Positions 1 to 5,591 of a DNA stretch of 5,591 bases are shown one piece after another. The position numbers were made by a program, and so were the translations under genes. This stretch comes from a virus (Duplodnaviria; Heunggongvirae; Uroviricota; Caudoviricetes), in IMG/VR virus record IMGVR_UViG_2585427777_000009, positions 1 through 5,591 of that record; one strand, given 5' to 3'. The notes beneath the pieces were generated by a model, which saw only the letters and a list, made by a program, of their open reading frames with translations, was not told the origin of the DNA and made no database searches. Position 1 is the stretch's first letter. Every line of letters begins with the position of its first letter.

Positions 1-17
1 ACCTTGGTTTAAGAGAA
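1..17. other. Left crossover site in inverted orientation, truncated by the window start (central TT at positions 4-5)
   Basis: Positions 1-17 (ACCTTGGTTTAAGAGAA) are the exact reverse complement of 5114-5130. The outer 9 bp of the site would lie left of the window. Confidence 0.65.
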
Positions 18-148
18 CTCGGTACCAGCGGTGAAAAGATCCCCCTGTTGAGTACGGCTAACACATGGAGTGCGCGCCAGACTTTCAACGGCGGGATCAC
101 CGGGGCGCTGACAGGGAACGCCGACACCGCGACGAAATTAAAAACAGC
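1..148. repeat. Left arm of the segment-flanking inverted repeat (pairs with 4983-5130)
   Basis: Hand-aligned reverse complement of 4983-5130 matches 1-148 with 3 mismatches (positions 53, 107, 140), all third-codon-position synonymous changes. Similarity drops to protein level only beyond 148. Confidence 0.9.
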
Positions 149-2237
149 CATAAACATTAATGGCGTCAGGTTCGATGGTTCGGCTGACATTACGTTGACT
201 CCTAAAGATCTGGACGTTTACAGCAAAAGCGAAATAGACAATAAAAAAGGGATGAGAAAATACACTTTTTCAGCGCCTGCAAATGCAGTAAGCGGTAAGT
301 GGTATCCTATAGTCTTTCGCCGATCTAGAGGCAGTACCGATGAATTAGCCTCACGAGTTGTGATAACTACTTATTCCTCAGCTGGCGGATACGCCATGAA
401 TAATTGTGAATTTAATGGTTTTGTTATGCCTGGCGGTTGGTCTGATCGCGGTTCATATGCGGCTGGTTTTTTCTCAATATATTCTACTGCTGAGCGAGCT
501 ATACACTCGATTATTTCAAGTGTGAAAGATGACGATTTGTGTAGTGTGTTTTACGTTGAAGCCAGAGCATTTCCTATCAAGATATTTGCTGAGGAGGGCT
601 TGAACGTAATTGTTCCAACTACTGACTATACCGTTGGTCAAGCCACCTATAAGTGGGGGGCCACAGATCCAGTAGCAGAAAGTACAAATACTCAAACCAT
701 TCTGGATTTTAAAAATGGACGTGGTTATTACTGCTCACATCAGTTTGTTTCAAGCCTTTCAGGAAATGCAGCAACAGCAACGAAATTAGCAAGTTCAATA
801 AACATAGGTGGTGTATCCTTTGATGGTTCAGCCGATATAGATTTGCCTGGTGTTAATGCGACTGGTAATCAGAACACCACGGGGAATGCGGCGTCTGCCA
901 CGAAATTACAAACGGCAAGAACCATTGGTGGCGTTTCATTTGATGGCTCCGCCAATATCAACCTGCCGGGCGTGAATATTGCTGGTAGCCAGAACACGAC
1001 TGGTAATGCTGCAACCGCAACGAAACTTCAGACGGCCCGCACAATAGGCGGCGTGTCATTCGATGGTAGTGCCAATATCGACCTGCCAGGTGTGAATAAA
1101 ACAGGTAATCAGAGCACAACCGGTAATGCTGCAACTGCAACAAAACTGCAAACAGCACGCACAATAGGCGGCGTGTCATTCGATGGCTCCGCCAATATCA
1201 ACCTGCCGGGTGTAAACATTGCTGGTAACCAGAACACAACCGGTAATGCAGCGACAGCGACCAAGTTACAAACCGCTAGAACTATAAATGGGGTGTCGTT
1301 TGACGGTTCTAAAAACATTGAGCTAACTCCAAGGTCTATAGGCACGATCAACTCAGCAACAATGTCTTTTAGTGGTGGTGCCGGATGGTTCAAGCTGGCA
1401 ACTGTAACCATGCCACAAGCCAGTTCCGTGGTTTACATAAGCCTGATTGGTGGCGCAGGGTTTAACGTTGGCTCCCCGCAGCAAGCAGGCATCTCTGAGC
1501 TGGTTCTGCGTGCAGGAAATGGGAACCCCAAAGGTATTACTGGTGCATTATGGCGACGGACCTCGGTTGGATTTACTAATTTTGCATGGGTGAATACATC
1601 CGGTGATACCTATGACATTTATGTAGAAATAGGTAATTACGCCACAGGTGTTAATATCCAGTGGGATTATACCAGTAACGCCAGCGTAACGATTCATACA
1701 TCACCAACTTATACAGCGAATAAACCAACAGGCCTGACAGATGGAACTGTATATGTAATTTACAGTTCGCACATTAAACCGACTGCTGCTGATGTTGGGG
1801 CGTTATCATTATCTGGAGGTCAATTGAATGGTGCACTGGGCATCGGTACATCCAGTGCTCTTGGCGGTAACTCGATTGTTTTGGGTGATAATGACACGGG
1901 CTTTAAACAAAATGGCGACGGTAATCTGGATGTTTATGCTAATAACGTCCATGTTATGCGCTTTGTCTCCGGTAGCATTCAAAGTAATAAAACCATAAAT
2001 ATTACGGGGCGTGTTAATCCCTCGGATTACGGTAACTTTGATTCCCGCTATGTGAGAGATGTCAGACTTGGCACACGTGTTGTCCAGACCATGCAGAAAG
2101 GGGTGATGTATGAGAAAGCAGGGCATGTAATTACAGGGCTTGGTATTGTCGGTGAAGTCGATGGTGATGACCCCGCAGTATTCAGACCAATACAAAAATA
2201 CATCAATGGCACATGGTATAACGTCGCACAGGTGTAG
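1..2237 (+). CDS. Tail fiber protein, alternative variable C-terminal cassette (Sv'-like), silent in this orientation; 5' end is the crossover site and it has no start of its own
   Basis: Frame is open from position 3 ([22 protein letters not shown]...), identical to the minus-strand fiber across the inverted repeat. The TTG at 48 used by the ORF track is not a real start. Contains repeated [32 protein letters not shown] fiber-shaft motifs and a C-terminal [26 protein letters not shown]...NGTWYNVAQV module shared with the other fiber. Stop TAG at 2235-2237, followed 3 nt later by a tfa gene. Confidence 0.85.
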   Translation, partial: LGLRELGTSGEKIPLLSTANTWSARQTFNGGITGALTGNADTATKLKTAININGVRFDGSADITLTPKDLDVYSKSEIDNKKGMRKYTFSAPANAVSGKWYPIVFRRSRGSTDELASRVVITTYSSAGGYAMNNCEFNGFVMPGGWSDRGSYAAGFFSIYSTAERAIHSIISSVKDDDLCSVFYVEARAFPIKIFAEEGLNVIVPTTDYTVGQATYKWGATDPVAESTNTQTILDFKNGRGYYCSHQFVSSLSGNAATATKLASSINIGGVSFDGSADIDLPGVNATGNQNTTGNAASATKLQTARTIGGVSFDGSANINLPGVNIAGSQNTTGNAATATKLQTARTIGGVSFDGSANIDLPGVNKTGNQSTTGNAATATKLQTARTIGGVSFDGSANINLPGVNIAGNQNTTGNAATATKLQTARTINGVSFDGSKNIELTPRSIGTINSATMSFSGGAGWFKLATVTMPQASSVVYISLIGGAGFNVGSPQQAGISELVLRAGNGNPKGITGALWRRTSVGFTNFAWVNTSGDTYDIYVEIGNYATGVNIQWDYTSNASVTIHTSPTYTANKPTGLTDGTVYVIYSSHIKPTAADVGALSLSGGQLNGALGIGTSSALGGNSIVLGDNDTGFKQNGDGNLDVYANNVHVMRFVSGSIQSNKTINITGRVNPSDYGNFDSRYVRDVRLGTRVVQTMQKGVMYEKAGHVITGLGIVGEVDGDDPAVFRPIQKYINGTWYNVAQV
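762..1331 (+). repeat. Tandem 120-bp in-frame coding repeats (40-aa phage fiber-shaft repeat), about 4.75 copies
   Basis: Units at 762-881, 882-1001, 1002-1121, 1122-1241 and a partial unit 1242-1331. Each encodes [40 protein letters not shown]. Exact nucleotide runs of about 30 bp recur between units (e.g. cgcacaataggcggcgtgtcattcgatgg at about 1037 and 1157). Confidence 0.9.
2040..2237 (+). repeat. Internal diverged inverted repeat: conserved fiber C-terminal module (pairs with 3332-3529)
   Basis: The last ~65 codons of the two fibers are about 85% identical at nucleotide level by eye and about 90% at protein level (DSRYVRD(V/I)[18 protein letters not shown]...NGTWYNV(A/S)QV). Confidence 0.8.
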
Positions 2238-2240
2238 TTT

Positions 2241-2768
2241 ATGCAGCATTTAAAAAATATTACTGCGGGTAATCCAAAAACTGTTGCCCAGTATCAACTG
2301 ACAAAAAATTTTGATGTTATCTGGTTATGGTCCGAAGAGGGAAAAAACTGGTATGAGGAAGTAAGTAATTTTCAGGAAGACACGATAAAGATTGTTTACG
2401 ATGAAAATAATATTATTGTCGCCATCACCAGAGATGCTTCAACGCTTAACCCTGAAGGTTTTAGCGTTGTCGAGGTTCCTGATATTACTGCCAACCGACG
2501 TGCTGATGACTCAGGTAAATGGATGTTTAAGGATGGTGCCGTGATTAAGCGGATTTATACGGCAGACGAACAGCAGCAACTGGCAGAATCACAAAAGGCA
2601 ACTTTGCTTTCCGAAGCCGAATCCGTGATTTTGCCGCTGGAGCGCGCTGTCAGGCTGAATATGGCAACAGATGAGGAACGCAGCCGACTGGAAGCATGGG
2701 AACGCTACAGCGTTCTTGTAAGCCGCGTGGATACGGCAAAGCCAGAATGGCCACAAAAACCTGAGTAA
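2241..2768 (+). CDS. Tail fiber assembly chaperone (Tfa; Mu U / lambda Tfa family), partner of the plus-strand fiber cassette
   Basis: 175-aa ORF starting at ATG 2241, 3 nt after the fiber stop. N-terminus [41 protein letters not shown] with internal [18 protein letters not shown] and C-terminal PEWPQKPE are recalled from memory as typical of enterobacterial phage Tfa proteins. N-terminal ~105 aa are ~75% identical to the minus-strand paralog. Stop TAA at 2766-2768 is followed by a hairpin terminator. Confidence 0.85.
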
Positions 2769-2772
2769 AAAT

Positions 2773-2796
2773 AAGGCCCGATAACGGGCCTTTTCT
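2773..2796. terminator. Bidirectional rho-independent terminator between the convergent tfa genes
   Basis: 8-bp stem (aaggcccg 2773-2780, complementary to cgggcctt 2785-2792) with loop ataa. It is flanked by T-runs on both strands (ttttct on plus; tattttt on minus, from 2764-2772). It lies between the plus tfa stop (2766-2768) and the minus tfa stop (2796-2798). Confidence 0.6.
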
Positions 2797-3329
2797 CATT
2801 CTGGTTGTTCGGGAAACGTTACTGGCAGGCTGGAGGTGTCTGTAGATTCGACTTTCTGCGCATAGAGCATCCACTCGGTTAATTTTTGTTTATTCTCGTC
2901 GGAAATGATGCCCAGCCGTAGCTGTGAGTCCCATAGCTGGGTTTTATCCCTGACAAGTTGCAACAGGCTTTGCTTTTCATTCTCTGCCTGCTGCCTCTGT
3001 TCCTCCTCGGTATAAGTTCGCTTTATCACTACGCCATCTTTGAACATCCATTTCCCCGAAATATCAGCCCGGCGATTTGCTGTAATATCAGGCAACTCAA
3101 CGACACTTAAACCTTCTGGATTAATTGCCGATACATCTTTATCCATAGCAACAATTATTCCATCTACAGTGTAAGCCAGTTTTATTGTATCTTCCTGAAA
3201 GTTTTTCACTTCCTCATACCAGTTTTTTCCATCTTCGGACCATAACCAGATAACATTAAAATTCTTTGTTAGCTGATATTGTTCAACGGTTTTTGGATTA
3301 CCTGCGACAATGTTTTTTAAATGCTGCAT
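2796..3329 (-). CDS. Tail fiber assembly chaperone (Tfa; Mu U / lambda Tfa family), partner of the minus-strand (expressed) fiber
   Basis: 177-aa ORF. Its ATG (complement of 3327-3329) lies 2 nt after the fiber stop (3332-3334). N-terminal half is a paralog of the plus-strand Tfa ([41 protein letters not shown]); the C-terminal ~70 aa are divergent. Ends in ...PEQPE, with the stop at 2796-2798 abutting the central hairpin. Confidence 0.85.
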
Positions 3330-3331
3330 GA

Positions 3332-3529
3332 TTATACCTGCGATACGTTATACCATGTTCCGTTAATTAACTTTTGTATTGGTCTGAATACTGCCGGATC
3401 ATCGCCATCAACTTCACCGACAATGCCAAGCCCCGTAATTGCATGACCTGATTTCTCATACATCACGCCTTTTTGCATAGTCTGAACAACACGTGTGCCC
3501 AGGCGAATATCTCGTACATAGCGAGAATC
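3332..3529 (-). repeat. Internal diverged inverted repeat: conserved fiber C-terminal module (pairs with 2040-2237)
   Basis: See the partner feature at 2040-2237. Confidence 0.8.
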
Positions 3530-5591
3530 CGATTCAGCTTTGGTATATGCACCAACATCCCCCGCAGAGGGTTTGCGGGTTGTGGTGTAAAACTCTGACC
3601 AGTTAGCTTCAAAGCCATAACCATCACGCGCTGAACGATAAAAGATACCGCCGTTCTTATAATTCACGCGGAACTGTACAGCAGGGCAACTCCCCGCATT
3701 CATATTGAAGTGGAGGATTAATGTCGATGCACCACTGATATCTGCATCATAAACACCGCTATTCCAGTTCCAGCCAACAGCTTTATCATTTGCAACCCTG
3801 CTTCCTGTTTGCCCTAAAGCGAATGCAGGCTGCTGGTTTTTCGTGTTGTAGTCTCGTCGCCAGCCAGGAGCATAAGCATCACCATGATTAATATAAGTGA
3901 ATTGAGCGTTAGTGATGCCGCCTCCGGTGGAAGTGCTTGGTGTTGTTACACGGATGGTCATGGCACCTTTATTGCCCATAACTTCAATAACGCAACCCGC
4001 AAGGTGAATAAGTCCACATCCGGTGTCAGTAATAATTTTATTATTGCCGTATGACCATGAGCATTTACACATCCAGTATGGATGATTGAAGGCCCACTGA
4101 GATTCCAGCCATTCAATAAATTGCGCCGTCGTCCAGTTTCCTGCACCTGTGCTAATAGAGCCATGAAAAGAGCGGCAAGCACCTATTGTTTGCGTAAATT
4201 TATCTTTGTTTGGAATATCTGCGCCGTTCTGGTTTTTCTGTAATGCTCCTGCGGCTAATTCTACAGTTTGCTCAAGATTTAAATCTGCCGCCGTTAGCTC
4301 AATATTTTTAGAACCATCAAACGACACCCCATTTATAGTTCGAGCGGTTTGTAACTTGGTCGCTGTCGCTGCATTACCTGTTGTATTCTGATTGCCAGTG
4401 GCATTAACACCAGGTAAATTAATATTCGCAGTACCATCAAAGCTAACTCCGCCGATAGTTCTTGCCGTCTGTAGTTTTGTAGCGGTCGCTGCATTGCCAG
4501 TTGTATTCTGATTGCCAGTGGCATTCACACCAGGAATGGAGTCCCTTGATGTATAGACCTGCGCCCAATCTGACCATGCAGCATCTGTTGTATCCCTACG
4601 GGAACGAATGAATGCCGGTGCATGTGCGCCACTTGTACCACTCCACCCAATAAGCAACTCTCCCTCACCAGCAGCACTCGCCCCTTTCATATGCAGAACA
4701 TTGCCGAATGATGTTGGGTAACTATTGCTATATGCTTCATACATTTGAATACCAGCAGTACCCTGAGTAGAGCCACTTAACGCCGTTACGGGCCCGCGTG
4801 ATACCAATGTATTAATGTTGATATCGCCTGAGCCATCAAACTTAACACCATTGATGTTTCTCGCCGTCGCAAGTTTTGTCGCGGTAGCAGCATTCCCCGT
4901 GGTGTTCTGGTTACCAGTTGTATTTACACCTGGAAGATTGATATTGGCCGAGCCATCAAATGCCACACCGCCAATAGTGCGTGCTGTTTTCAATTTCGTC
5001 GCGGTGTCGGCGTTCCCTGTCAGTGCCCCGGTGATCCCGCCGTTGAAAGTCTGGCGCGCACTCCATGTGTTAGCCGTGCTCAACAGGGGGATCTTTTCAC
5101 CGCTGGTACCGAGTTCTCTTAAACCAAGGTATTGGATAACGGCCAGTGTGCTTGTTTTAGCCAGAATATCGCGACCGACTGACGTTAAATCAGTCTGCGC
5201 TACCGTATCCTTACCAGTGAAATAAGGCAGTTTGTTTGCACCAGTCGCAAGGGCAGCGAGCGCGGTTAAAGTTGCATCCAGAGGCTGTTTGCCTGCCAGC
5301 GCATTTGTCATTGTTGTCGCAAAGTTCGGGTCATTGCCCAGTGCTGCTGCAAGCTCATTCAGGGTATCAAGAGCTTCAGGTGATGAGCCGACCAATGCAG
5401 AGATAGCAGCTCTTACATAAGCGGTCGTAGCAATCTGCGTGTTATTCGTACCCTGTGCAGCGGTAGGCGCAGTAGGTATTCCCGTTAATGCAGGACTTGC
5501 TAAAGGCGCTTTAAGGGCCAGAGCATTGTTGATAGTTGTGCTGAAATTCGGGTCGTTATTGATCGCAGCCGCTATTTCTTTCAGCGTATCC
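3332..5591 (-). CDS. Tail fiber protein in the expressed orientation: conserved N-terminal region (continues beyond the right window edge) fused in frame to a variable C-terminal cassette; 5' partial
   Basis: The minus-strand frame stays open upstream of the TTG at 5395 chosen by the ORF track, to the window end (my translation of 5396-5461: ...[22 protein letters not shown] then [25 protein letters not shown]), which is a typical phage tail-fiber N-proximal motif. It crosses the crossover site at 5114-5139 in frame. It contains two blocks of fiber-shaft repeats and a Cys/Trp-rich distal domain, and ends ...[65 protein letters not shown]. Confidence 0.9.
4292..4537 (-). repeat. Two tandem 120-bp fiber-shaft repeats in the minus-strand fiber (aa ~287-368)
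   Basis: Direct repeats are visible on the plus strand (gcattacctgttgtattctgattgccagtggcattaacaccagg at about 4370 and gcattgccagttgtattctgattgccagtggcattcacaccagg at about 4490). Translation gives [21 protein letters not shown](G/N)GVSFDG twice. Confidence 0.8.
4808..5017 (-). repeat. First block of fiber-shaft repeats in the minus-strand fiber (about 1.75 units), partly inside the flanking inverted repeat
   Basis: Encodes [40 protein letters not shown] followed by [30 protein letters not shown]. The counterpart motif in the plus-strand module is at about 114-203. Confidence 0.75.
4983..5130. repeat. Right arm of the segment-flanking inverted repeat (pairs with 1-148)
   Basis: See left arm. 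The repeat extends outward into the crossover site (to 5139), whose left-hand counterpart is outside the window. Confidence 0.9.
5114..5139. other. 26-bp DNA-invertase crossover site (hix/gix/cix family), right copy: TTCTCTTAAACC-AA-GGTATTGGATAA
   Basis: Imperfect palindrome of two 12-bp half-sites around a central AA dinucleotide (5126-5127). It closely resembles hixL (TTCTTGAAAACCAAGGTTTTTGATAA) and gixL (TTCCTGTAAACCGAGGTTTTGGATAA) as I recall them. It sits exactly at the outer boundary of the inverted repeat and inside the fiber reading frame. Confidence 0.75.

Follow-up and report, generated by a model that had tools for sequence, protein, structure and literature searches.

A phage P1-type invertible tail-fibre segment whose cin invertase very probably lies directly beyond the left contig end

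The Din family of small serine invertases includes Hin, which acts on the H segment of Salmonella, Pin, which acts on the P segment of e14, and Min of p15B, and these systems use 26-bp crossover sites and an enhancer that contains a pair of Fis sites. The pair is spaced by 48 bp in the enhancers of Hin, Gin and Cin. The G-segment of phages Mu and D108, which is inverted by Gin, has a constant fibre part (Sc), two sets of Sv and U genes, an invertase gene beyond the far crossover site, and a Fis-dependent enhancer within that gene. Inversion of the Cin type is also Fis-dependent and also has its enhancer within the invertase gene.

The DNA analysed herein (the window; 5,591 nucleotides) is the entire contig JOST01000095.1 of assembly GCA_000713855.1 (range 1-5591, 100% identical) and, being the whole contig, has no DNA to the left of position 1 in the record. 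We are confident that it represents a C-segment of the phage P1 type, an invertible tail-fibre switch of host range carried on a P1-like phage-plasmid, with cin directly to its left. Its features are as follows.

1-17, no strand: cixL, inner two-thirds; an inverted copy of 5114-5130 that equals the annotated P1/P7 cixL there
1-184, no strand: left arm of the terminal inverted repeat, encoding the junction peptide
3-2237, plus strand: Sv', the silent alternative C-terminal fibre part, without a start of its own and open from base 3
48-2237, plus strand: open reading frame of 729 aa with a TTG start
2241-2768, plus strand: U', the tail-fibre assembly chaperone paired with Sv' (175 aa; Pfam Caudo_TAP, E 6.6e-35)
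2773-2792, both strands: terminator-like hairpin with an 8-bp stem that includes 6 GC pairs, from a promoter/terminator scan
2796-3329, minus strand: U, the tail-fibre assembly chaperone expressed in the captured orientation of the contig (177 aa; Pfam Caudo_TAP, E 4.8e-34)
3332 to beyond 5591, minus strand: fibre open reading frame, a continuous frame that exits the right end
3332-5125, minus strand: Sv, the variable C-terminal fibre part now fused to the constant part (gp37_C match)
5114-5139, no strand: cixR, complete; TTCTCTTAAACC AA GGTATTGGATAA, crossover at 5126-5127
5128-5591, minus strand: Sc, the constant N-terminal part of the tail-fibre gene S (distal end only), exiting the right end

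The window holds four substantial open reading frames (ORFs), of which the two long ones have weak Pfam matches to gp37-type tail fibres. A preliminary description of this DNA, made from its letters alone, had placed the fibre constant region on the right, and this is where we find it, at the end of the minus-strand frame that leaves the window beyond 5591. The stretch at 5128-5591 is 93-99.5% identical to the Sc of phage P7 and of three further relatives (L001, L008 and L009), and the annotation of P1 and P7 also identifies it as Sc. The same description had stated that no ORF in the window resembles a serine recombinase, and it was right: none was found in the ORF list or by Pfam, and the sole match of the relatives' Cin to the window in a tblastn search was 5 residues long (E 6.6). 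The two ORFs of approximately 175 aa were considered as an invertase and ruled out, as both are Caudo_TAP proteins. As a GC-rich structure with T-runs on either side, the hairpin between the convergent chaperone genes U' and U is a candidate terminator for both directions.

The segment is bounded by an inverted repeat (1-184 versus 4947-5130, 90% complementary in a repeat search) that is perfect over bases 1-52, with its first mismatch at 53. The junction peptide encoded from base 3 on the plus strand is the same as that on the right side. Within this repeat, the 17-mer TTCTCTTAAACCAAGGT occurs in exactly two inverted copies, at 1-17 on the minus strand and at 5114-5130 on the plus strand, where 0.02 copies would be expected by chance, and no further copies were present in the window at up to 3 mismatches. 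With two copies only, this is a two-site rather than a multi-site system; a multi-site arrangement like that of p15B Min had been considered and was ruled out on this basis. The sites correspond to two inverted 26-bp crossover sites, each with 12-nt half-sites and a 2-bp core. The right one, cixR, is identical to P1 cixR at 26 of 26 nt, and its inner 17 nt are those that recur inverted at 1-17. For cixL, 17 of the 26 nt lie in the window: the outer half-site contributes its last 3 nt (ACC, bases 1-3), followed by the crossover dinucleotide TT at bases 4-5 and the 12-nt inner half-site, GGTTTAAGAGAA, at bases 6-17. P1 and P7 annotate the crossover at the equivalent of window 4/5. The 9 nt of the outer half-site that are cut off at the contig end read CAATCCTAA in the relatives, where they overlap the last cin codons and the stop; they are present, and identical to those of P1, in seven relatives of the same orientation as the window and in L008. 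Put together, the full left site reads CAATCCTAAACC-TT-GGTTTAAGAGAA, and its outer half-site contains the cin stop codon.

Both orientations of the segment are found across strains, with the window and L004-L007 one way and L009 and L008 the other. In L009, which matches window 1-5130 at 99.84% identity, the segment is flipped, such that Sc is fused to Sv' in a gene called as 1148 aa. L008 (97.7% identity) carries the complete flipped state on one contig, in the order Sc, Sv', U', U, Sv, cin. A simulated flip of the window gives in-frame read-through of 898 aa to the stop at 2235-2237. The window has two fibre C-termini, each with its own chaperone and each in frame across the site: Sv is fused to Sc, Sv' is open, and there are two Caudo_TAP genes. 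The TTG start at 48 is an artefact of ORF finding, and the silent alternative end of the fibre, Sv', spans 3-2237. The 48-2237 frame is a promoterless gene end whose expression needs inversion. It is called as a stand-alone 729-aa gene with the TTG start on L004, L007, L008 and the window's own contig (L011).

A search of complete E. coli genomes, phages and plasmids with the whole window gave a best match of approximately 89% identity over 85% of its length. Nine relatives extend past the crossover site: L004-L007, L001, L003, phage P7 (L002), L008 and phage P1. L004, L006 and L007 match window 1-3827 at 99.2% identity, and L005 matches at 98.3% and 97.2% over most of the length. The plasmid L001, L003 and P7 are annotated records whose collinearity with the window extends past both of its ends. 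Each of the nine relatives encodes a 186-aa Cin invertase, and its gene abuts the crossover site on the far side from the fibre constant region; in L008 it sits at the opposite end of the segment, still opposite the constant region. The preliminary description had expected an invertase to the left of the window, directly adjoining one crossover site. The first of these expectations appears correct, since the relatives have Cin there, or opposite the constant region if flipped, and the second is likewise supported by related DNA, in which the cin stop abuts the equivalent of window base 1. The deduction by which this position had been reached, that an invertase should be on the left if the constant region is on the right, is correct reasoning.

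The junction itself is constant in the seven relatives with the same orientation as the window (L004, L005, L006, L007, L001, L003 and P7). Here cin is 561 nt long, lies on the plus strand and has its TAA as the three bases before window base 1, and the sequence reads TTCAATCCTAA up to the boundary and ACCTTGGTTTAAGAGAA after it (onward, ...TTCAATCCTAA followed by ACCTTGGTTTAAGAGAAC...). The window begins ACCTTGG. The gene is annotated as cin in P7 and P1, with cixL spanning the junction, and the P1 arrangement is the same. At the DNA level the relatives' cin is 96-99% identical to that of P1 (96-100% across all nine). The protein comprises a Resolvase domain (Pfam; residues 3-135, E 3e-51) and an HTH_7 domain (residues 138-181, E 2e-18); the catalytic serine is Ser9, in an RVST motif, and residues 1-182 align with the solved Gin structures 3uj3 and 4m6f (E ~1e-88).

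As a control, a spread sample of E. coli records was searched with a query comprising cin plus the junction, and some P1-like plasmids matched the junction part only. Two of these, L015 (NZ_CP074972.1) and L016 (NZ_CP148417.1), carry a fixed fibre gene and an assembly gene, one of each, together with a serine acetyltransferase, and have neither a second arm nor cin. These look like fibre variants of the P1-like backbone that do not switch. As these cin-less plasmids are without the second arm, the invertase goes with the two-armed segment, which is the form found in the window. The genes of L015 and L016 occupy the place where cin and the second arm would be.

Two of the annotated relatives show peculiarities of their own. 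P1-like elements normally persist as plasmids; in L003 (NZ_CP178203.1, 3,533,762-3,545,002) the complete P1-type cin/C-segment/fibre region is found in what its record calls a 5.2-Mb E. coli chromosome, a placement that could reflect integration or an assembly join. In L001, at 5997-7323, the annotation splits the active fibre gene into two pseudogene pieces, frameshifted or partial, beside an intact 616-aa tail-fibre gene, and this fibre locus may be damaged or misassembled across repeats.

The enhancer of Cin-mediated inversion is annotated in GenBank at cin nt 19-90 in P1 and at nt 19-86 in P7, and the relatives are 92-100% identical to P1 over the annotated stretch. The earlier proposal that a recombinational enhancer would lie within the 5' part of the invertase gene thus agrees with this annotation, and the conservation suggests that it applies to the relatives as well. 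Two matches to a loose Fis consensus (KNNYRNNWNNYRNNM) fall in this region and are kept in all relatives, one at cin nt 23-37 (TATCAACAAATGAAC; TATCAACTAATGACC in L005 and L008) and one at cin nt 71-85 (GCGCAGGATGTGAGC), with their centres 48 bp apart. Single loose matches are weak, with about 4 (4.3) expected per shuffled 561-nt gene; a pair spaced by 48 bp within the first 100 nt occurred in 0.18% of shuffles, in a test that was defined after the pair had been seen. With a strict consensus (GNNYRNNWNNYRNNC) only the second of the two enhancer sites was matched, and neither site matched an AT-core pattern. A literature search on the P1 Cin C-segment enhancer and on this assembly found nothing.

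Bases 1-60 of the window contain no invertase sequence; they comprise what is present of the left crossover site (1-17) and the first stretch of the inverted repeat. Very probably, cin and its internal enhancer are absent only because the contig stops at the recombination site, inside cixL. The position of the break is informative. When the right junction of the window was reverse-complemented and compared with the relatives' cin-side junction, bases 1-52 were identical and position 0 differed (A versus T). Base 1 is the first base that the cin-side and Sc-side junctions have in common, and the contig end therefore looks like an assembler break at a repeat; most likely the assembler was blocked there by the repeat or by a junction of mixed orientation. 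L009, a contig from an independent assembly, stops at the mirror position, which corresponds to window 5130, and other short contigs begin at window 54, 56 or 62, just beyond the first mismatch of the repeat. It seems that short-read assemblies break at predictable bases where they meet invertible segments.

The right end has no visible reason: it lies at 5591, after 461 nt of the constant part of S. Related contigs continue for 143 nt (L012) and 274 nt (L008) past the equivalent of 5591 before they end. No tandem repeats that might account for this end were detected by TRF in the corresponding part of L009 (6400-8000). Our guess is a repeat held in common with another prophage fibre gene in those genomes.

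As the window is the whole contig, the flank of the source element lies outside it, and the element could have lost or inactivated its own cin, leaving the segment frozen or flipped in trans by another Din-family invertase, for example one from a Pin- or Gin-type prophage. P1-like plasmids without cin do exist, and E. coli chromosomes commonly carry more distant recombinase genes, approximately 74% identical to cin. However, every two-armed relative examined that reaches past the site opposite Sc (9/9) has cin abutting that site, and the cin-less plasmids also do without the second arm and the second cix site, whereas the window retains the two arms, two intact sites and an Sv' that is open in frame. 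We consider such a loss highly unlikely. On the strength of near-identical DNA in other assemblies, the source strain in all probability carries cin at this place.

A further alternative concerns which DNA adjoins base 1. The break falls exactly where the cin-side and Sc-side junctions begin to coincide, as if reads supported both, and L009, the closest relative among the matches listed, is flipped; Sc rather than cin might then lie to the left of base 1, with the majority orientation flipped and the link of Sc to the right end an assembler choice. Yet the deposited contig joins Sc to the right end, and this reading would not remove the invertase but place it at the far end of the segment, where L008 has it. 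We regard it, too, as highly unlikely. There is also a very small chance that the two-armed segment lacks an adjacent cin and is flipped in trans by the invertase of another prophage, or that the enlarged 5.1-kb segment, with its repeat-expanded Sv', gives a receptor specificity undescribed for P1-like phage-plasmids.

Read from its right end, the window has the layout Sc - cixR - [Sv, U, U', Sv'] - cixL, and in the favoured arrangement cin would follow directly to the left in molecules of the contig's orientation. Cin would be encoded on the plus strand, reading towards the segment, from about -560 to 0 (taking the last cin base as 0), and its last codons and TAA stop would form the outer half-site of cixL. 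The enhancer would lie at about -542 to -471, with its two Fis-type sites at about -538 to -524 and -490 to -476. Cin (186 aa, with Ser9 and the C-terminal HTH) would pair cixL with cixR, and host Fis bound at the two enhancer sites would activate the synapse. The 5.1-kb segment would then flip, exchanging Sv/U for Sv'/U' behind the constant part, and this exchange would alter receptor specificity. We infer that Fis binds in this way in the source genome and that inversion is still active there.

For annotation, the 'missing' invertase of this contig is very probably an artefact of its ending at a recombination site, and the ORF at 48-2237 is a silent gene end and no standalone gene. Contig ends at the outer edge of inverted repeats can serve as a signature of inversion systems.

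The Sv' arm has a repetitive interior. Window 765-1286 consists of 4.3 tandem copies of a 120-nt unit (75% matches) that encodes a 40-aa repeat, and units related to it occur on the other arm at 4291-4534 and 4817-5020. Units of this type explain most of the long internal inverted repeats of the window. They may allow homologous exchange from arm to arm, or variation in fibre length.

The arrangement is an ordinary one that has long been known, the textbook Cin/C-segment host-range switch of P1. With P1 and P7 (Punavirus) it has in common the gene order cin, cixL, Sv', U', U, Sv, cixR, Sc, R, 16, an identical cixR, a cixL that is identical over the bases present, and, as judged from the relatives' cin, the position of the enhancer in the 5' end of that gene. 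It differs in that approximately 5.12 kb separate the crossovers in the window versus approximately 4.26 kb in P1 and 4.0 kb in P7, in its divergent variable arms, such that P1 and P7 match just about half of the window, and in the 4.3 tandem 120-nt (40-aa) repeats of its Sv'. These differences are only quantitative. Likeness to the G-segment of Mu and D108 extends to the U/U' region, which is approximately 83-86% identical between Mu-like phages and the window, and to the alignment of the relatives' Cin with the Gin structures. However, the G segment is approximately 3 kb long and belongs to a transposable, Mu-type phage, whereas the flanks here are P1-type, with lydC/lydA/darA on one side and R/16/bplA on the other. 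More distant are Hin, which flips a promoter rather than fibre gene ends, and p15B Min, which acts on six crossover sites, in contrast to the two copies of the cix 17-mer in the window.
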